Assembly (NCBI GenBank): GCA_045652205.1
Contig: JAZRTX010000040.1
Coordinates: 241 to 64,240 of the forward strand
Direction of reading: 5' to 3'
DNA length: 64,000 nucleotides
DNA from: Clostridia bacterium
GTDB taxonomy: Bacteria > Bacillota > Clostridia > Christensenellales > QALW01
Shown piece after piece: positions 54,340-63,049 of the stretch. The notes beneath the pieces are model-generated. The model was not told where the DNA came from and did no database searches. It was given only the letters and a program-made list of their open reading frames with translations. Position 1 is the stretch's first letter. Every line of letters starts with the position of its first letter. Position numbers and translations under genes: made by a program.

Positions 54340-54398
54340 TTTTTGTTGAAATTTAGAATGAAATATTATATAATATAATTTTAGAAAGGATCGTAGTT

Positions 54399-55109
54399 AT
54401 GGAAAAGCTGTTTGTTGTTTCTGATATACACGGGCATTATACTTTATTAAAAGAAGCTTTAATAAAAAGCGGTTTTGATAAAGATAATCCTGAGCATAAA
54501 ATAATCTGCTTAGGCGATTATTTTGATAGGGGAAGCGAAAACAAGCTTGTTTTAAAGTTTTTTGAACGCATTCAAAACAAAGTGCTTTTAATGGGTAACC
54601 ATGAAGAGCTTTTACTTAAACTGCTTGAAACAGGCAAGGTTTTACCCCATAATTACATAAACGGAACAATTCAAACCTTGCAGGAATTTTTCGGCAAATA
54701 TTGTATTGACCCTAATGATGACACCGTTGATTTTTCAGGCAAAACAAGTGAAGTTAAGCGTATTTGCGATTTTATCAACGAAACGGTTAATTATTATGAA
54801 ACCGATGAATACGTTTTCGTTCACGGTTTTTTACCAACGGTTGATTATAAAAAAGCAACGGATGAAGATTGGCAAAAAGCGCGATGGCTAAGATGGTCCG
54901 AAGCCTATACAGGTGAAAGACCGTTAAAAGATAAAATTCTTGTGTGCGGTCACATGCCTACGTTGATTGCAAGATTATTTGATAGTTCACGCCCAATGGG
55001 CGATACAAGTATTTATTATGGTAACGGGCTTATCGCCCTTGATGCAGGAACTGCTGATTCAAAACAAATAAACGTTTTAGTAATAGAAAATAATACAAAG
55101 GAAGTATAA
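54399..55109 (+). CDS. Calcineurin-like metallophosphoesterase (PPP/ApaH-like)
   Basis: SDIHG, LGDYFDRG, GNHE, FVHG, CGH. Confidence 0.92.
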   Translation: MEKLFVVSDIHGHYTLLKEALIKSGFDKDNPEHKIICLGDYFDRGSENKLVLKFFERIQNKVLLMGNHEELLLKLLETGKVLPHNYINGTIQTLQEFFGKYCIDPNDDTVDFSGKTSEVKRICDFINETVNYYETDEYVFVHGFLPTVDYKKATDEDWQKARWLRWSEAYTGERPLKDKILVCGHMPTLIARLFDSSRPMGDTSIYYGNGLIALDAGTADSKQINVLVIENNTKEV

Positions 55110-55112
55110 ATT

Positions 55113-57854
55113 ATGGCATTATTTAATTCTGAAGATTATATTAAAAAGGTAATGGAATCTGAAAATATTGACGATTGTCCCAAAGTGCCCATACCTGAAA
55201 TTGAAGAAAAACAGAATTACATATTTATCAGCTATTCCCACAGGGATTATAAACAGGTTTTTTCTGATTTAGCGTTAATGTACGAAAAAGGCGTGCGTTT
55301 TTGGTACGATTACGATCTTAAAGCAGGCAAAAACTGGAATAAGGAAGCCTTTAAAAAGATACGCGATCCCCGTTGCAGCGGTGTTATTTTCTATTTAAGC
55401 GAAAATCTGTTTTTAAGCCAATCGGTTATTGAAGAAATCCGTATAACCTTAGGATTAGATGACGATAATCAGCAAACTGACGACCCTGTAAACTATTTTA
55501 GTGTAAACTTAACTGAAAACAGACCTTCTGATATTATTTTTAAAGCAAGGGCGAGTATGACTGATGAAGAATGGAACGCAAGGGGATACGATGGTGATTG
55601 GAACTTAACCCTTTTAACTGCATTCAGGGATAAGGCAACCTACGTTAAATTTAATACCCCTGATCATAATGCACAGCTTATTACACAAATCAAAAAGAAT
55701 TTTAACGTTATGGATGATTCAAGCAGTAAGCAGGGCAAATACGAAGGCGAAATGCTTAACGGTAAACGTCACGGCTTTGGTAAGGCGGTTTACGATAACG
55801 GCACTGTTTACGAAGGCTACTGGGAAAATGATCAAAGGCACGGCAAGGGAAAATATATTTATCCTGAAAGCAATAAAGCCGAGTATTTTGAAGGAACTTT
55901 TGTTAATGACGTTATTCAGGGCTATGGCGTGTATCAGTTAAGAAGCGGTACAAAGTATGAAGGTAATTTTACTGATGGTAAAACCACAGGTGATTTTACA
56001 GTAAACTATAATAACGGTGAAGTTTATATCGGTCAGCTTGTAAACGCCAAACGTCATGGCAAAGGTAAACTTACTTATAATAAGGATGATAACCGCGATT
56101 ATTACGAAGGCGATTGGGATAACGAAAATCGTCATGGTGAAGGCACTCTTGTTTGGAAAAGCGGTCAAAAATATACAGGCCAGTGGGGAAGTAACGTGCT
56201 TAACGGCAAAGGAAGAATGGATTTTACCGAAAAAACCACGTGGCTTTATCACGAGGGTGAATATAAAAACGATAAGCGCAACGGCTTTGGCAAAATGGAA
56301 TACCGTAATGGCGAAACTTGGGAAGGCGAATTTAAAGACGATAATAAATATAACGGCACCGGCACGGTAGATTACAGTGACGGTAAGATTTACACAGGTG
56401 AATTCAAAGATGGTAAGCGCAACGGCTTTGGTAAATGCGTTTATTCTAGCGGCAGAATCTACGAAGGTCAGTGGAAAGATAATCTGTGGCACGGAACAGG
56501 CAAAGTTACTTATGAAACAGGTAATAAATGGATTTCCTATGAAGGTGAGGTTAATGAAGACAAAATTACCGGCATAGGTAAAATTACTTATGCAGAAAGT
56601 AGTAATATGTCAACCTACGAAGGCGGTATGCTTGAAGCATTACGTCACGGTGAAGGTACTTTAATCTGGAAAAACGGCGCAACTTTTACAGGTTATTGGG
56701 AAAAGGATAAAAGGGAAGGCAACGGCCGTCTTGATTACGAAGAAACTAACGATTGGCTTTATCACGAGGGTGAGTATAAAAACGATAAGCGTGAAGGCTA
56801 TGGTAAAATGGAATACCGCAACGGTGATTCCTGGGAAGGCACTTGGAAAGAAGGCAACAGATATACAGGGGTAGGTACAGTAATTTATACCAGCGGAAAC
56901 AAATATACCGGTGAACTTAAAGAAAAGAATTACCATGGTCAAGGCACGCTTATCTACACTAACGGTGAAACCTATACGGGCGAATTTAAAAATGATAAGT
57001 ATGATGGCAAGGGCAAACTTGTTTATTCTAAAAACGCTAACGTTATTTCTTATGAAGGCGATTTTAAGCAAGGTAAACGCCAGGGCTACGGAAAACTGAT
57101 TTTTGCTAATGGTGACGTTTATGAAGGACAATGGTTGTCAGATAATCGCCACGGCTATGGCGTAACCACTTATGCTATGAACAGAGGCTTATATAAAACA
57201 CACAAGGGCAGATGGTCTAACAGCAAGATGTGGTTTTACGGCGAATATGTTATGCTTGATGATTCAAAAAGAACGGGTATGTTTGAAGATAATATGCTCA
57301 ACGGCCCCGGTTTAATTGTAAATAAGTTTGGCAAAGAAAAACACGTAATATGGAAAAACGGTGCGATAGACCCTAAAACCAATAAGTTTACAGATTGGTT
57401 ATGGAATTCTATGCAGGGTAACTACGGTTACACAGGTGAATTAAAGGATGGCTTTCCCGATGGCTTTGGCGTATACCGTTACGATGACGGAAGCGTTTAT
57501 GAAGGCGACTTTAAACAAGGCAATTTTGAAGGTTTTGGTCGTTTAGTCTTTAAAACAGGCAAGGAATGTATCGGCGATTTTAAAAACGGTAAGCTTAACG
57601 GAAAATGTTCAATAAACAATGGTAATTGGAAATACGTTGGTCAGTGTGTTGATGATGAGATGCACGGTGAAGGCGAATTACACATAAAATTCTATTGTTA
57701 TAGCGGAACATTTGAACATAATAAGCCAAAGGGTGAAGGCTACATAACAGGCATTTCGGGCAATAAATATAAGTTTATTGATGGCGTTTGTCAGGACGAA
57801 AAAGCAGCCGAGCCGATAAAAAATTTCTTTAAAACAAATATTACTTTAAGATAA
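55113..57854 (+). CDS. TIR-domain protein fused to a long MORN-repeat array
   Basis: YIFISYSHRD...VRFWYD...SQSVIEEI TIR_2-like domain with conserved Glu, followed by many YEGxWxNxxRHGxG repeats. Confidence 0.9.
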   Translation: MALFNSEDYIKKVMESENIDDCPKVPIPEIEEKQNYIFISYSHRDYKQVFSDLALMYEKGVRFWYDYDLKAGKNWNKEAFKKIRDPRCSGVIFYLSENLFLSQSVIEEIRITLGLDDDNQQTDDPVNYFSVNLTENRPSDIIFKARASMTDEEWNARGYDGDWNLTLLTAFRDKATYVKFNTPDHNAQLITQIKKNFNVMDDSSSKQGKYEGEMLNGKRHGFGKAVYDNGTVYEGYWENDQRHGKGKYIYPESNKAEYFEGTFVNDVIQGYGVYQLRSGTKYEGNFTDGKTTGDFTVNYNNGEVYIGQLVNAKRHGKGKLTYNKDDNRDYYEGDWDNENRHGEGTLVWKSGQKYTGQWGSNVLNGKGRMDFTEKTTWLYHEGEYKNDKRNGFGKMEYRNGETWEGEFKDDNKYNGTGTVDYSDGKIYTGEFKDGKRNGFGKCVYSSGRIYEGQWKDNLWHGTGKVTYETGNKWISYEGEVNEDKITGIGKITYAESSNMSTYEGGMLEALRHGEGTLIWKNGATFTGYWEKDKREGNGRLDYEETNDWLYHEGEYKNDKREGYGKMEYRNGDSWEGTWKEGNRYTGVGTVIYTSGNKYTGELKEKNYHGQGTLIYTNGETYTGEFKNDKYDGKGKLVYSKNANVISYEGDFKQGKRQGYGKLIFANGDVYEGQWLSDNRHGYGVTTYAMNRGLYKTHKGRWSNSKMWFYGEYVMLDDSKRTGMFEDNMLNGPGLIVNKFGKEKHVIWKNGAIDPKTNKFTDWLWNSMQGNYGYTGELKDGFPDGFGVYRYDDGSVYEGDFKQGNFEGFGRLVFKTGKECIGDFKNGKLNGKCSINNGNWKYVGQCVDDEMHGEGELHIKFYCYSGTFEHNKPKGEGYITGISGNKYKFIDGVCQDEKAAEPIKNFFKTNITLR

Positions 57855-57890
57855 AAAATCGCAACCTGAAAAGGTTGCGATTTTTTTATT
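57853..57890. terminator. Bidirectional terminator shared by the TIR-MORN and RyR operons
   Basis: AAAAAATCGCAACC-TGAAAA-GGTTGCGATTTTTT. Confidence 0.85.
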
Positions 57891-58164
57891 TTTCAATTTT
57901 ATAACCAAGGGAAATTATAACCTTTAAGGTTTCCAAGGCAGTGTTGCGGTCATAGTCTTTTTCTATTTCAGGCAATTCTTCGTAAGGCACAAGGCAAGGT
58001 GTTTCTTTTTTTATATCGTCACGTTTTTCACCGTATTTCCAGCCTTCGTTTATTCTGTTTTTTGCCCAAACGTCATGAACGTTTTCTGCAATTTTTTCAG
58101 TTAGTTCTTTTAATTCAGGGGATAAAACAATATCTTTTGTGTCAATAGGCTTTGGATTAAACAT
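57886..58164 (-). CDS. Stand-alone RyR (ryanodine-receptor repeat) domain protein
   Basis: NPKPIDT...EKIAENVHDVWAKNRINEGWKYG...PCLVPYEELPEIEKDYDR. Confidence 0.9.
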   Translation of the reverse strand: MFNPKPIDTKDIVLSPELKELTEKIAENVHDVWAKNRINEGWKYGEKRDDIKKETPCLVPYEELPEIEKDYDRNTALETLKVIISLGYKIEK

Positions 58165-58165
58165 A

Positions 58166-60073
58166 TTATTTCTCCTTGTCTAACTTGTCTGCTACGGCAA
58201 AAATGCTTGGAATTTCACGAACAATCATAATATCATATTTTTTAAATTCGGCAATTTTATAACCATTTTCTCTTGCTATAACGTTATATTCATTTTCTAA
58301 ATCGTCAAGGTCGTCCCAAGGAATAATGCAGGGGTGCCCTTTTGAAACAGGGTCCTTATGATTTTTTGTTTTATAGGCGTATTTCTTAATATCGTCTATG
58401 GTGGTTGAATTATAACCTTCCGTTGCCATAAAGGCGTTCCAGCGCAAATGCTCGTTTTTGCTTAATTCTAATAAAAGGTCTTTATCCTGAATTAAATTTT
58501 TATATTCGTTAAGCTCGTTGGCGGTAGGGAAAGCACCTTTTAAAACACCGCTTGCAAAAAGCTTTGCATTTAAATGAATGGCTGCTGCCATTGAATTGCG
58601 CCTATCGTATTCCTTGGTTTTAAAATCGTGGTCAGCCATTTTATAGGTTTCAGAATTTTCATCTTCCGTAAGCGCACCCCAGTAAGCAAGATGCACCGCA
58701 AAAGCAAGGTTTTCCAAATGTGAATCAAAGATGGTGTTCTTTGAATAAATAGATTCTAACGTGCCAAACAAATGAATGTTTCTGTTTTCTAAATATGCAG
58801 AATTTTCAAAAAGAGAATGTGTCTTTTTACTTGAACGCACTCTTGTAAAAAACTGCGGTAATTTATCCTTGTCAAAATCTCTTTTTTGCCTGAAAAGTCT
58901 ATAAAACTTTTCAGTGATAGTAAAGTTAAGACCGTCATCACCCATACAAACAAAAACGTGTGTGGCATCTGAACTGTTATCCTTATTAAAGAAAGCATCA
59001 TCAAAGGTTTCGCTTAAAACGTCAGCATTAATAAATTGAATAGTTCCGTCATTTTTTAATAAAGGACAATCTGCTAAAAACTGCTTTTCAATTTTGTCAG
59101 CATCTTTATCATAAGCCCTTATTTTAAGGTTAAGCCCTACGATCTGACCTGCCCAATAAACAGTTTTAAGCATACGTATTCCATATTTGCCTAAGCCAAC
59201 AAGGGCAACGGAAATATCTTTAAAGCCTGCGGGTAAAACGTATAATGGATGCTCAAAAATAAGGTGATTGCATAAAAGGGCAGTTTCGTCAATGCATCTT
59301 ATTTCAACGTTGGAATTCTTCTCTATTAAGCTTTCTAAAAAGTCAACGCTTGCACCACTTTCACAGAAAGCGTAAATAACAGCTTTAACGTCTTTCTTTT
59401 TCTGAACCTTTGTTATTAAACCTTGTGCAAGGTCAACGTTGTTGTCTTCGTCCTTTTCAATTAAATATACGCGGTACTTCTTATTTTTAAAGTATTTTAA
59501 TCCAAAAACTGAACCGTGTAAAAGCAATGCGCCTTCTTTTCTTGCACCTGTTTTTAAGCCTTCGTCGCAATCCTTGGTATTTAAAAAGATAATTTTGCCG
59601 TCTCTATCAATAGTCTTTGCAAGGCTTAATGATTTTTCGTTTAATGCAGAAAAAACGTAGCACTTTTCTTTAAAAGATAAAGTGTATCTTATTCTGTCAA
59701 AAGCATCGCCGATAAAGGAAATTATTAACCCCGAGGTTACGATAGGGCAAATAATGTAGCAAAGATAATTGATTATTAAATAAGCGCTTCTTAATAATCC
59801 CGTAAGCTGAATATCTGCTAAAAATTCGTGGTCCTGCCCGCCACCTAAGGTTTTAAGGGCAAAAATCAGGGATTGCAAAATAGCGTATAAGCCATCGGAA
59901 ATACACTTAACTCCAATAAAAAATACAGGCAGAATCATAACAAAGCTTGCAAATAAGATACCCGTCATAATTAAAGAAATGCAACTTTTAATTCTGTGGC
60001 GGTTGTTATAAGCCATAAAAGCTGTAATCACTAAAATGATAACGCCTAAAATAAAAGAAATAATTTCAAACAT
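58166..60073 (-). CDS. Membrane protein with N-terminal TM/pore-like segment, Rossmann/RCK-like domains and C-terminal RyR-like domain
   Basis: Three or more TM helices with ALKTLGGGQD, then VGLGKYG and EHLRWNAFMATEGY...HPCIIPWDDL. Confidence 0.75.
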   Translation of the reverse strand: MFEIISFILGVIILVITAFMAYNNRHRIKSCISLIMTGILFASFVMILPVFFIGVKCISDGLYAILQSLIFALKTLGGGQDHEFLADIQLTGLLRSAYLIINYLCYIICPIVTSGLIISFIGDAFDRIRYTLSFKEKCYVFSALNEKSLSLAKTIDRDGKIIFLNTKDCDEGLKTGARKEGALLLHGSVFGLKYFKNKKYRVYLIEKDEDNNVDLAQGLITKVQKKKDVKAVIYAFCESGASVDFLESLIEKNSNVEIRCIDETALLCNHLIFEHPLYVLPAGFKDISVALVGLGKYGIRMLKTVYWAGQIVGLNLKIRAYDKDADKIEKQFLADCPLLKNDGTIQFINADVLSETFDDAFFNKDNSSDATHVFVCMGDDGLNFTITEKFYRLFRQKRDFDKDKLPQFFTRVRSSKKTHSLFENSAYLENRNIHLFGTLESIYSKNTIFDSHLENLAFAVHLAYWGALTEDENSETYKMADHDFKTKEYDRRNSMAAAIHLNAKLFASGVLKGAFPTANELNEYKNLIQDKDLLLELSKNEHLRWNAFMATEGYNSTTIDDIKKYAYKTKNHKDPVSKGHPCIIPWDDLDDLENEYNVIARENGYKIAEFKKYDIMIVREIPSIFAVADKLDKEK

Positions 60074-60234
60074 AATTTATCTTCCTTTATATTTAATAAA
60101 ACAATTATACAACAATTAACGTCAAAATGCAAACTTTATTAAAAAAAGGAATATTATCAAAAAAAATAAAAAAATCATATTATATATCAGCAGAGTTATT
60201 TCTGTTAAAAACGTTTGAAAGGATTTTTTTGTAT

Positions 60235-60656: not shown

Positions 60657-60672
60657 GAAAGGGGTAAAAAAT

Positions 60673-60873
60673 ATGTGGATTTATGAAAAAAAGTTACAGT
60701 TTCCTGTAGATATAAAAATGAAGGATTTAAAAATGGCAAAGTTTCTCTTTGCCCAGTACGGCGGACCTGATAGCGAATTAAGTGCTTCGCAAACATATCT
60801 TGCACAGCGCTATACTATGCCAACGCCTGAAACCAAGGCTCTTTTAAATGATATCGGTATATCGGTTCGTTAA
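60673..60873 (+). pseudogene. cotJC: 5' part of cotJC (Mn-catalase family), interrupted
   Basis: MWIYEKKLQFPV...QYGGPDSELSA...LLNDIG is followed by unrelated ISVR* instead of the conserved TEELxH. Confidence 0.88.
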
Positions 60874-60880
60874 TTGTGCA

Positions 60881-60909
60881 TTGACATTCCCGTTTAAATA
60901 TAATATAAT
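60881..60909 (+). promoter_or_regulatory. sigma-A promoter at the element end
   Basis: TTGACA (60881-60886), 17 bp, TATAAT (60904-60909). Confidence 0.75.
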
Positions 60910-60947
60910 CGGAAAGGAGATGAATATAACAAAAGGAGAATATTTAA

Positions 60948-61253
60948 ATGGATGCGATTGAATTTATTGTTGGCAAAATTGTAGAAAAAAACGGTGCTGA
61001 TGCGAAACGCTTTATTATAAAAAAGGACGAGTTTCTAAATACATTTATTAAAGAATATACTGTTATCATAAAGCAAAGTATTGAAAGGCCCAATATGATA
61101 ACAAATCCGGAAATTTTAACTTCCAACATCGATATTTCAAATATCGCGGAGCTGCAAAAGGCAATTACTAAGCATTTGTTTACCAAACTACACACTAATA
61201 ATTTAATCAGTGAAAGAGAGTTTGATGAGTTATGCAAAGGAGAATCTTTATAA
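60948..61253 (+). CDS. Hypothetical protein with SHOCT-like C-terminus, upstream of the recombinase
   Basis: AAGGAG RBS; KLHTNNLISEREFDEL. Confidence 0.65.
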   Translation: MDAIEFIVGKIVEKNGADAKRFIIKKDEFLNTFIKEYTVIIKQSIERPNMITNPEILTSNIDISNIAELQKAITKHLFTKLHTNNLISEREFDELCKGESL

Positions 61254-63049
61254 ATAATATGCAATTCAATGATGATATTTTTGGTTTGGATACCAAAAAC
61301 GCCGTAAGTTCATATGGTGTGTATACCGAAGAAGCAAAACCCAAAATGCCTTTGATATATGAAACAGAACGAAGTATAAACGTGTGTGCATACTGTCGAG
61401 TTTCTACGGACAAGCGGGACCAGGCAAACAGCTTTGAAGCGCAACAGGACTACTTTAATGAAGCTTTTGGACGTAGAAAAAATTGGAAGCTTAAAACTAT
61501 ATTTGCAGATAATGGAATCAGCGGTACTTCACTTAAAAATCGAGATAGCTTTGAACAAATGATAAGGGAAGCAAGGGCAGGAAAATATCAGCTTATTATA
61601 ACAAAAAGCGTTTCGCGTTTTTCAAGGAACGTTCAACATATTATGAGTTTTGTAGAAGAATTACGCGAACTTGGCGTCTACATATGGTTTATTACAGATA
61701 AAATTTGTACCGATGATGAAAACTACCGTAAAGCACTTATTGCTGCGTCTGATGCCGCAGAAGCAGAAAGTAGAGCAGCATCTGAGCGAGTTCGTTGGGG
61801 ACAAAGGTACAAAATGCAACAAGGTGTTGTGTTCGGCCGCAAGGAAATGTTTGGCTATAACATCAAAAGAGACGAAGATGGAAAACAGTTTTTTGAAATA
61901 ATACCCGATGAAGCAGAAATTGTTCGCCGCATATTTAGAATGTACGCAGATGGCTTGGGCACTTTTAAAATAGCACGTCGATTAGAGGAAGAGGGAATTA
62001 AAACAAAAAGGTACAAAAATGGTTGGTCTAACACCGTTATTCTTAAAATACTCCGCAATGAAAAATATGTCGGGGATTTAAAGCAAGGTAAAACCTATAC
62101 AACGGACTATATTTCCCATAAAAAGAAATACAACCGTGGAGAATATGCAACGCATTTTGCACCAAACCACCACGCTGAAAGTGCTATCGTTAGCCGAGAC
62201 CTCTGGGAGCTTGTGCAAAAGAAATTAGAAGAAAATACCCCTTCAGACGAAGTGAAGAAAAAGCATAGCAACCGCTATTGGTGTAGCGGAAAGGTGTTTT
62301 GTGGGGAATGTGGCTCGCGTTATGTTTCTCATATTAAACATTTAAAAAACGGTGGTATTCATAAAGCCTGGAAATGTTGGGAAAATCAACAATACGGATA
62401 TAAAAAACAACGTCTAATAAATGGCGAGCCGGTTATAGATGAAGAAACAGGCGTAATAATAGAAATTGGTTGCAACAATCAAAGCGTTAATGACAAAGTG
62501 TTAAAGCAAGGCGTGCATGATATACTGGAAGTTGTTATTGGCCCCATAATGCATAAAAATTACGAAAAATTAAAAGCAATAATATTAAAACGCAAAAAAG
62601 AAGATACCACCGAAACAAAGATAAAGAAGTTGGAAAAAAGGCTAATTTCATTAGAAGATGAATGCGCAGATATAACACGACATATTTTAAAATCTCAAAG
62701 AGAAGATGAAATTGTGCCAATGGGTTTGCTTTTAGCACAAAAGCAGGTGGAAGAAGAAATAACTGCTACACAAAACGCAATAAATGAGTTGCGAAGAACA
62801 GAAAAAAATTACGATATAGAAAATGCCGAAATGCTTTTAAAACTAGACAAACTCAAGGAGATTGTAGAACTTAAAGACGATAAAATAACAGAAGATATAT
62901 ATAGAAGTATTGTTGACAAAATAGAAGTTTTTGATGGACATATACTGAAATATTATATTGCAGGTTGGGACAAGCCTATTGCTATGCAATATACAACAAC
63001 AGGAAAACTGGATGCATTTACAGTAGAGTTTGTAATATTGGAAGAATGA
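61232..63049 (+). CDS. Large serine recombinase (resolvase, recombinase and zinc-ribbon domains)
   Basis: AYCRVST, DNGISGT, TKSVSRFSRN, FGYN, ILRNEKYVG, FCGECG and a coiled coil. The start codon is uncertain (61232 or 61259). Confidence 0.95.
   Translation: MQRRIFINNMQFNDDIFGLDTKNAVSSYGVYTEEAKPKMPLIYETERSINVCAYCRVSTDKRDQANSFEAQQDYFNEAFGRRKNWKLKTIFADNGISGTSLKNRDSFEQMIREARAGKYQLIITKSVSRFSRNVQHIMSFVEELRELGVYIWFITDKICTDDENYRKALIAASDAAEAESRAASERVRWGQRYKMQQGVVFGRKEMFGYNIKRDEDGKQFFEIIPDEAEIVRRIFRMYADGLGTFKIARRLEEEGIKTKRYKNGWSNTVILKILRNEKYVGDLKQGKTYTTDYISHKKKYNRGEYATHFAPNHHAESAIVSRDLWELVQKKLEENTPSDEVKKKHSNRYWCSGKVFCGECGSRYVSHIKHLKNGGIHKAWKCWENQQYGYKKQRLINGEPVIDEETGVIIEIGCNNQSVNDKVLKQGVHDILEVVIGPIMHKNYEKLKAIILKRKKEDTTETKIKKLEKRLISLEDECADITRHILKSQREDEIVPMGLLLAQKQVEEEITATQNAINELRRTEKNYDIENAEMLLKLDKLKEIVELKDDKITEDIYRSIVDKIEVFDGHILKYYIAGWDKPIAMQYTTTGKLDAFTVEFVILEE

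Follow-up and report, generated by a model that had tools for sequence, protein, structure and literature searches.

A four-gene locus at positions 54399..60073 of a 64,000-nucleotide stretch of the Clostridia contig JAZRTX010000040.1 (hereafter "the window"; all window positions use its numbering) appears to encode nucleotide signalling by a TIR-domain protein with a new receptor domain, namely the ryanodine receptor (RyR) repeats that form the tail of a predicted ion channel. We think it fairly probable, whatever the purpose of the system, that the TIR protein makes a messenger that the RyR tail of the channel would receive. The basis for this wiring, all of it computed here, is the anatomy of the domains, the retention of catalytic and ligand-binding residues, and the repeated linkage of the genes. 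TIR signalling through such a receptor domain on a predicted channel is apparently undescribed: a literature search, with most subscription papers outside its reach, found no system in print that pairs a host TIR with an RyR-domain channel.

Calling of open reading frames places the four genes in two operons that point at each other. On the plus strand, a phosphoesterase gene (54399-55109; 236 amino acids, aa) is followed after 3 nucleotides (nt) by the gene for a TIR-MORN protein (55113-57854; 913 aa). On the minus strand, the gene for the predicted pore-loop channel (60073-58166; 635 aa) is followed after a 1-nt gap by the gene for a small, stand-alone RyR protein (58164-57886; 92 aa). The same convergent four-gene layout is present at the same site in two genomes of the same genus (G006 and G011), which rules out an artefact of assembly. 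The window's own genome is 1.68 Mb in size and 90% complete, and the nearest related loci are from Clostridia, according to their record titles.

Anatomy of the TIR-MORN protein, the predicted channel, and the small RyR protein

The TIR_2 core of the TIR-MORN protein (55221..55472, plus strand; residues 37-120) scores above the Pfam cut-off (E = 5e-8). The sequence-only reading, an earlier note on this DNA that was made without database searches, had stated that the catalytic glutamate is retained, and this is correct: it is E108 (codon 55434-55436), and the glutamate is kept in all 53 of the aligned TIRs. The MORN array (55725..57752, plus strand; about residues 205-880) matches at E = 2e-89, with 16 stretches that are significant individually in Pfam, and hydropathy gives no membrane segment. 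From its sequence, the protein is likely to be a sensor joined to a signal synthase. The array varies in length and is the fastest-diverging part of the protein; its rate of synonymous substitution (dS) is raised (0.9 versus 0.45 for pheS/pheT), and we looked for positive selection on the array and saw none (dN/dS of 0.11-0.23). A profile of the TIR-MORN clade did not match any solved structure at E <= 0.01. Neither PADLOC 2.0 nor Pfam matched any protein of the locus to ThsA or ThsB; PADLOC 2.0 is from 2023 and predates Thoeris types V-XI.

The 635-aa protein has no real match in Pfam, NCBIfam, or PADLOC, and weak matches to ANK_LRRK2, CysW, and NuoJ were dismissed. An AlphaFold2 model from an alignment of 60 sequences (predicted local distance difference test, pLDDT, of 92; predicted template modelling score of 0.84) gives the order as an extra N-terminal helix, M1, an element that resembles a pore helix, M2, RCK1, RCK2, and a tandem RyR tail. 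In agreement with the model, hydropathy finds hydrophobic segments at residues 4-22, 35-53, and 94-112, and the pore helix is predicted at residues 58-77. The membrane part (residues 1-120) corresponds to 59714..60073 and the tandem RCK domains (about residues 135-445) to 58739..59671, both on the minus strand. Foldseek ranked the GsuK channel first (E = 5e-6) and TrkA second. A wider structural search found the CASTOR gating ring (Z = 16.6, root mean square deviation [rmsd] 4.1, 311 residues aligned), KtrA (Z = 16.3), and GsuK (Z = 15.6); the GsuK match extends across model residues 33-451 and thus includes M1-M2. Neighbours of the model in the ESM Atlas include clusters named for the RCK N-terminal domain and for RyR plus TrkA_N. 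The nucleotide motif of RCK2 is intact (G293-x-G295-x-x-G298, with D322 as the acidic residue past the second strand), and it is conserved among 150 representatives of the family that were found without sequence patterns (G293 in 148/150, G298 in 143/150, and an acidic residue at 322 in 147/151). The family is large, with 2,138 clusters at 50% identity at E <= 1e-30 and 7,736 at E <= 0.001.

On this modelled anatomy, we predict that the protein is a channel of the pore-loop type whose RCK domains are in tandem and whose tail is a tandem RyR (Repeat12) domain. The transmembrane helices, pore loop, GxGxxG-type RCK region, and RyR-like C-terminus of the sequence-only reading are thus borne out by the model, by hydropathy, and by the fold matches, except that the RCK domain and the RyR repeat each occur twice rather than once. 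The segment ALKTLGGG, which that reading called pore-loop-like, needs a correction: the loop after the pore helix reads KTLGGGQD in the window, lacks GYG, and varies across the 79 channel loci that are described below, and just 3 of the 150 representatives have GYG within their first 140 residues. A potassium-channel label was rejected on the same grounds (no GYG or TVGYG filter in a loop that varies across the family). A tetramer prediction for residues 1-132 in four copies scored 0.00 against a mark of 0.42, which is no answer and counts neither way. As modelled, the protein resembles GsuK, MthK, KtrA/TrkA, and the plant CASTOR/POLLUX in having pore helices followed by tandem RCK domains, with a nucleotide motif in RCK2. 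It differs from them in lacking GYG, in having an extra N-terminal helix, and in that its RyR tail takes the position of the RCK C-lobe, and it is only 8-13% identical to them.

The tail (residues 446-635; 58169..58738, minus strand) falls below the threshold of the Pfam model PF02026 and was matched to RyR domains by hhalign, by a profile search, and by its fold. The C-terminal 187 residues of the channel match RyR Repeat12 (hhalign 97.6%, E = 4e-12; profile search E = 8e-11). Folded alone, the tail has a pLDDT of 96 and aligns over its full length with a tandem Repeat12 (Z = 7.3, rmsd 5.1, 140 residues aligned); the top 17 rows of this structural search are all RyR repeats, and unrelated rows have Z of 4.0 or less. 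The animal ryanodine receptor shares this tandem repeat fold on a channel, while the body and the size of that channel are unrelated, and we do not claim orthology.

The ligand pocket can be compared to those of two phage proteins. According to two 2026 preprints, phage proteins with PF02026 bind or hydrolyse the 2' and 3' cyclic ADP-ribose (cADPR) made by TIRs (PMC13232231; 10.64898/2026.06.04.730250). RyDEP (DyoEdafos gp78) is described as having a catalytic dyad of H75 and D117, with W78 and H100 binding the ligand (PMC13232231). RyR Tad (vB_PatP_CB1 gp68) is reported to bind 3'-gcADPR at 43 nM, and 2'-gcADPR and cADPR as well, through H129/W132, H154, and D171 (10.64898/2026.06.04.730250). 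Our own alignment with both phage sequences confirmed the numbering of these residues. The second repeat of the channel's tail keeps all four (H542, W545, H580, and D614). The invariance of EHxRW across the 79 loci is circular, as this motif was the search pattern, so we set it aside and re-tested conservation on the 150 pattern-free representatives: H542 is kept in 146/149, W545 in 148/149, and H580 in 147/148. The pocket aspartate is present in 77 of the 79 loci, in 61 at the D614 column and in 16 at a spacing of 17 residues after the histidine. Those 16 homologues lack an inserted helix, and their spacing is that of H100-D117 in RyDEP and of H154-D171 in RyR Tad. The channel tail therefore has the same domain and the same ligand residues as the phage proteins. 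The difference lies in the setting: the phage proteins are anti-defence sponges or glycosidases, and here the domain is encoded by the host, on a predicted channel, and is linked to a TIR.

The small RyR protein is a clear member of PF02026 (E = 5e-38, 129.8 bits versus a cut-off of 27.4), and it matches 3nrt, a putative ryanodine receptor from Bacteroides thetaiotaomicron, at E = 4e-35. Its H30, W33, and D72 align with H75, W78, and D117 of RyDEP, and T55 replaces H100, so that it keeps three of the four ligand residues; H30, W33, and D72 are present in all 33 members of its family. A RyR gene adjoins the channel gene in 31 of the 79 loci and is fused to the C-terminus of the channel in two loci (L097 and L113), so the small RyR protein belongs to the system. 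From its sequence, we predict that it is a sponge, a hydrolase, or a subunit of the channel. The sequence-only reading had cast the phosphoesterase as the eraser of the signal; the small RyR protein, with both catalytic residues of RyDEP retained, is a better candidate for that role.

Linkage of TIR genes and channel genes

A scan of species-representative genomes yielded at least 455 candidate relatives of the channel, and the analysis was done on the best 79 loci, three of which are probably duplicates of loci from our set of relatives' genomes. A profile built from 17 TIRs marked 42 loci as containing a TIR gene, and Pfam's TIR_2 model (E <= 1e-6) confirmed 47 of the 48 proteins that were submitted. 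One more locus (L129) was added by a Pfam scan of 87 proteins, hand-picked from 196, in loci mostly without a TIR. Overall, 43 of the 79 channel loci have a TIR gene within 8 kb; 33 of these TIR genes are within 500 bp of the channel gene, and 38 are on the same strand. Of the 48 loci in which the channel gene has 4 kb or more of sequence on either side, 29 have a TIR. Given the density of TIR_2 genes, the expected number of loci is 0.5 for 61 related genomes, 1.9 for channel-bearing genomes, and 5.0 for the richest genome. (The background of 59 matches in about 122 Mb from the 61 relatives is a slight undercount, as it missed one TIR in G008, by a factor that is immaterial.) The sequence-only reading had linked the two operons by adjacency alone, and these counts now carry the link further.

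TIR linkage is scattered over the whole channel tree, where it changes 20 times in a set of 75 rows (L122 and four short rows were left out), and the linked loci are from several families and from Treponema. The partner TIRs belong to at least six clades, and their C-termini are MORN, LRR_5, LRR_4, TPR, Sel1, FtsK, methyltransferase, HD, or propeller domains, or none that was recognised. Judging by these sequences, the sensor domains on partner TIRs are interchangeable. Among the relatives, TIR_2 is present in 15 of the 16 genomes with a channel or RyR match versus 9 of the 45 without one, although these kin are not independent. In the reverse test, a RyR or channel gene is present in 12 of 80 metagenome loci that were anchored on a TIR, and in 11 of the 43 that are at least 9 kb long (about 9 are distinct). 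This rate is far higher than the RyR background of 11 matches in the 61 genomes.

The TIR of the window lies in a clade of 11 TIR-MORN rows (SH-aLRT support of 100). A check for co-occurrence of TIR-MORN genes with the channel, as the sequence-only reading had suggested, came out in favour of the link: in seven of these rows, all from other loci, the TIR-MORN gene is co-directional with a channel gene (L066, L070, L075, L076, L077, L079, and L094), and four of the seven are within 50 nt of it. We therefore interpret the convergent layout in the window as a rearranged form of what is elsewhere, by its gene order, a single operon. The window's genome has one channel gene and two more TIR proteins with the glutamate and with repeat-like C-termini, on other contigs (G000:C1:14175-15749 and G000:C38:3763-5628). 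For the second of these, members of its clade share an operon with the channel in other genomes.

Several genes recur in these loci. A short FtsK ATPase gene (alpha and motor domains) follows the channel gene or the small RyR gene in four loci (L066:10249-11328, L067:10265-11347, L086:10548-11672, and L089:1558-2658), and in L067, L086, and L089 it directly precedes the gene for a 330-aa TIR. L074:6757-8517 encodes a TIR-FtsK fusion. The FtsK gene or fusion may provide a DNA-sensing input. In L193:7017-12881, a TIR gene converges on two channel-like genes, one of which has a Pfam Ion_trans_2 pore along with RyR. Another recurrent neighbour of TIR or channel genes is a gene for a CitMHS/ArsB-like transporter (L034, L053, L037, L056, L087, L123, and L143). 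Two of the channel loci, L093 and L112, carry TIR-like genes of the DUF4062 family rather than TIR_2.

Proposed mechanism and alternative explanations

In the proposed mechanism, the TIR-MORN protein would sense a trigger and convert NAD+ into a messenger derived from ADP-ribose (ADPR), probably of the 2'- or 3'-cADPR type, and binding of the messenger by the RyR tail would alter the flux of ions through the channel. We infer three of these steps: that the TIR signal is diffusible, that the host's RyR tail is where it binds, and that this controls the gating of the pore. The pore would be a cation channel that is not selective for potassium, and RCK2 may add an input from adenine nucleotides (NAD, ATP, or ADP). 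The small RyR protein, either free or docked on the channel, could, as a sponge or glycosidase, set the threshold or return the signal to its resting level. The sequence-only reading had already proposed a sensor, a signal, and a membrane effector, and linkage far above chance favours that idea; it had looked to the RCK domain for reception, and the conserved pocket makes the RyR tail the likely receptor for the TIR product instead. As for purpose, the likeliest seems to be a response like that of Thoeris, in which phage or other attack leads to depolarisation of the membrane; we propose this tentatively and rate it at somewhat under an even chance. Signs of a role in conflict are patchy presence (8 of 30 genomes in the family), the swapping of repeat sensors, the variable length and raised dS of the MORN arrays, the duplicated and split TIR-MORN gene in G006, and, in distant loci, Abi_2-RyR fusions, vWA, PP2C, and kinase genes, and a Card1-like nuclease.

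A number of observations weigh against parts of this proposal. For the receptor, Foldseek on the isolated tail ranked the same RyR entries first, yet their E-values were not significant (the best was 0.2, and nothing was found at E <= 0.001); the first RyR repeat is degenerate; and hhalign put the conserved aspartate elsewhere, as it was misled by the inserted helix before D614. RyR repeats are also reported to bind ATP and drugs (10.64898/2026.06.04.730250), so the pocket does not name its ligand. Hydrolysis by the small RyR protein has to contend with threonine in place of the phosphate-binding histidine in 28 of 33 family members and with the report that, of eight RyDEP homologues, six bound the ligand and none hydrolysed it; by the same account, the pocket residues do not tell sponges from hydrolases (PMC13232231). 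As for linkage, 36 of the 79 channel loci have no TIR_2 gene, with some of these cut by contig ends, and 68 of the 80 TIR-anchored loci have no RyR gene. TIR-MORN genes without an adjoining channel gene occur in L151 and in G004, and in G004 and G018 the channel and the TIR are on separate contigs.

Other observations bear on the defence purpose. PADLOC, one of the checks that the sequence-only reading had named (with no hit expected of a novel system), was run on the four proteins of the locus and gave no system match, only weak matches to TIR models (and, in NCBIfam, to a phosphatase). In the 32 close loci, 20 of 125 neighbouring proteins match some PADLOC model, nearly all through generic domains (ATPase, FtsK, or enzyme), and the only strong match over most of a protein is to PDC-S01 (3 proteins in 2 of these loci). 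The close relatives thus do not appear to lie in defence islands. The window's locus is flanked by housekeeping and spore-coat genes (pheS/yitT/lysR on one side and cotJ on the other), and it is vertically inherited: dS at the locus is close to that of pheS/pheT, and dN/dS analysis shows purifying selection on all four genes. Finally, genomes have several dispersed TIRs and one channel.

These last observations also fit another explanation, rather unlikely in our judgement, in which the wiring is unchanged and the purpose differs: in gut Clostridia, ADPR derivatives made by TIRs would be a general second messenger, and several TIR sensors encoded at scattered sites would signal to a single channel involved in ion or stress homeostasis, in the manner of cyclic di-AMP and KtrA. 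The two additional TIRs and single channel of the window's genome, the 10 and 12 TIR_2 matches in G009 and G018, the apparent position of close loci outside defence islands, stable inheritance with no sign of positive selection, and the presence of RyR domains on RelA/SpoT-type and AAA proteins all favour it. Patchiness, the swapping of sensors, a split duplicate of the TIR-MORN gene in G006, and neighbours of the conflict type fit a conflict system instead, and the bacterial TIR signals characterised so far are all immune, according to a recent survey (10.64898/2025.12.03.692087). Alternatively, the TIR could itself be the effector, an NADase switched by the MORN array that depletes NAD+, and the channel would read the metabolic consequence, either through RCK2 (falling NAD+ or ATP) or through the RyR tail (linear ADPR). 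The nucleotide motif of RCK2, as intact here as in GsuK, TrkA, and KtrA and nearly invariant in the family (148/150, 143/150, and 147/151), is in keeping with this. Large TIR-plus-repeat proteins look like sensor-effector fusions. In addition, an ADP-ribosylglycohydrolase gene recurs in five loci, the pocket of RyDEP is reported to hold linear ADPR (PMC13232231), and Yirmiya et al. warn that, among partnered TIRs, some may act as effectors by depleting NAD (10.64898/2025.12.03.692087). We consider this explanation unlikely, as it does not account for an RyR pocket on the channel with all four of the cADPR-binding residues or for a separate small RyR protein beside the TIR.

The two remaining explanations dispense with a messenger. 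RyR repeats might serve for docking between proteins, holding the TIR-MORN protein or the small RyR protein at the channel; in two loci the small RyR and the channel are one fused protein, and eukaryotic MORN repeats bind protein partners. RyR domains were viewed as interaction sites in earlier work (PMC4820453). We consider docking very unlikely: partner TIRs from at least six clades with unrelated C-termini are easier to reconcile with a diffusible signal than with a fixed interface, and the conserved residues are the ligand residues. Or the genes could be neighbours only because they insert at the same variable sites, with no functional link, which might explain the convergent orientation in the window and the recurrence of the CitMHS-like transporter and the phosphoesterase near these TIR genes. 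That is highly improbable, since 30 of the 33 TIR genes within 500 bp share the strand of the channel gene, several of them overlapping it or within 20 nt of it, and since the order of the genes varies (upstream, downstream, or convergent) and the flanking genes differ among loci. Linkage in 43 of 79 loci, and its spread over the channel tree, largely refute this explanation.

Under the messenger-and-channel reading that we prefer, the closest known system is Thoeris. It too has a TIR with the glutamate adjoining a membrane protein that is a candidate for a signal-activated effector; here, in contrast, the TIR is a TIR_2 with a long MORN array and no match to the ThsB model, and the partners are an RyR tail and a stand-alone RyR protein. 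The Thoeris survey lists 29 putative types, covering types I-XI and 18 effectors that are unverified, and describes type X as a ThsB TIR with an "ion channel" effector, ThsK, whose signal is unknown; the words RyR, RCK, TrkA, and MORN are absent from its main text (10.64898/2025.12.03.692087). By analogy, the locus would work like Thoeris, and it may overlap with type X or with one of the unverified types. What the window adds is the clade with MORN sensors, a branch from gut Clostridia that Pfam misses, a stand-alone RyR protein with the catalytic dyad, and counts that are controlled for background.

Whether and where molecules of the cADPR type act on ryanodine receptors is a long-standing question. 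The Thoeris survey notes that cADPR has been linked to RyR channels in animals (10.64898/2025.12.03.692087), and an earlier report described RyR domains from prokaryotes, as well as channels of oomycetes that end in tandem RyR repeats, and viewed the domains as protein-interaction sites (PMC4820453). The 2026 phage work pointed to Repeat12, without a channel that is gated in this way; a 635-residue bacterial channel with its own TIR synthase would be a small system for testing the question. If the proposal is true, bacterial TIR signalling would have a new signal-receptor domain and a new class of effector, the carriage of RyR domains by phages would be explained, and a large unannotated family would gain a function. 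More broadly, and with less than even confidence, we suggest that bacteria have a pathway of their own from TIR to cyclic ADP-ribose to an RyR channel; that RyR is a host receptor for second messengers that controls ion channels as well as effectors of the RelA/SpoT, AAA, and Abi_2 kinds; that stand-alone RyR proteins are erasers; that phages acquired their RyR sponges from this host pathway; and that it could be a model for cADPR-type signals on the animal Repeat12. Thousands of diverse channel-RyR proteins would use the pathway, perhaps as a general messenger network that extends beyond defence.

The phosphoesterase, the setting of the locus, and RyR domains in other contexts

The phosphoesterase (Pfam Metallophos, E = 8e-17) has motifs of the PPP family, and its sole solved relative at E <= 1e-5 is 1g5b, a Ser/Thr phosphatase (lambda phosphatase). 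It is present in 14 of the 79 channel loci (14/34 close and 0/45 distant), always downstream and on the opposite strand, and its 3-nt coupling to the TIR-MORN gene is confined to the window's lineage. It is often accompanied by a 482-aa unknown protein (8 loci), HAD_SAK_2 (7), or ADP-ribosylglycohydrolase (5). A close copy is present in six relatives, all of which also carry the channel; around the copy in G004, the nearest 9 kb or so contain neither a TIR nor a channel gene. We rejected the phosphoesterase as a core component, given its absence from the 45 distant loci and its occurrence alone in G004. Nor is the eraser role given to it in the sequence-only reading supported: it is a PPP-type enzyme present in only 14 of the loci, and there it belongs to a separate, convergent operon. 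It is probably an accessory from a neighbouring operon for the turnover of ADP-ribose and phosphate, and it may help to turn over ADPR.

In the close clade, this second operon converges on the channel-RyR-TIR genes (L066:11340-15391, L083, L085, L089, L091, L092, and L073) and comprises genes for the phosphoesterase, the 482-aa protein (no Pfam match), HAD_SAK_2, a 190-aa unknown protein (4 loci), and ADP-ribosylglycohydrolase. In L076, the channel, RyR, ADP-ribosylglycohydrolase, and Metallophos genes run in one direction. A tblastn search of the window's genome (90% complete) found no ADP-ribosylglycohydrolase, HAD_SAK_2, or 482-aa partner. In G006 (L032:10695-16623), the TIR-MORN gene is tandemly duplicated around the phosphoesterase gene, and one copy is split into frames of 545 aa and 348 aa.

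The two operons of the window share a hairpin that resembles a bidirectional intrinsic terminator (57853-57886, both strands). It has a U run on both strands, with folding energies of -20.3 and -19.4 kcal/mol (z of -8.1 and -7.3), and none of 200 shuffles was equally good. This terminator, the four reading frames, and the 3-nt and 1-nt gaps are all located where the sequence-only reading had placed them. Sigma70-like promoter matches lie 5' of the phosphoesterase/TIR-MORN operon (54346..54374, plus strand; 11/12) and 5' of the channel/RyR operon (60104..60133, minus strand; 10/12). Both are consensus matches alone, and the region has 44 such matches versus 30.3 in shuffles, so each is weak taken singly. 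Beyond the channel gene (60666-63049), a cotJC-like frame after cotJB ends early, near 60880, ahead of a small open reading frame, and is followed by a large serine recombinase (61232-63049) that is also present in G011. In G006, cotJC is intact (191 aa). An element has probably integrated into cotJC in the window.

Two unannotated contigs that are labelled as gut phage, MT837259.1 and MT836850.1, encode RyR proteins that are about 61% identical to the small RyR protein; the other 278 phage matches are far more distant from it. These contigs may derive from host DNA, or the genes may have been captured recently.

RyR domains are also found on other kinds of proteins near these genes. An Abi_2-RyR fusion lies directly upstream of the channel gene in L104:4460-5620, L112:5847-7007, and L116:216-1136, and in L113, Abi_2 is immediately downstream of the channel that bears a fused RyR. 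L061:397-11316 (G039) has DUF4062-WD40, a 194-aa protein on the opposite strand, a RelA/SpoT-type protein with a C-terminal RyR, and then WYL; by its domains, RyR could be a receptor on another kind of effector there. Beside channel or TIR genes there are also genes for large single-RyR proteins (570-920 aa), one of which has a weak AAA match (L053:5770-8043, L100:9909-12023, L159:6533-8815, L111:12249-15005, and L227:1446-3224). Among the loci with distant channel homologues (L040:2708-10112, L063:3465-11765, L110, L123, L131, and L133), the channel gene follows a gene for a double-AAA/M41 protease or a weakly Card1-like gene, and in others of this set it lies among vWA, PP2C, and kinase genes.

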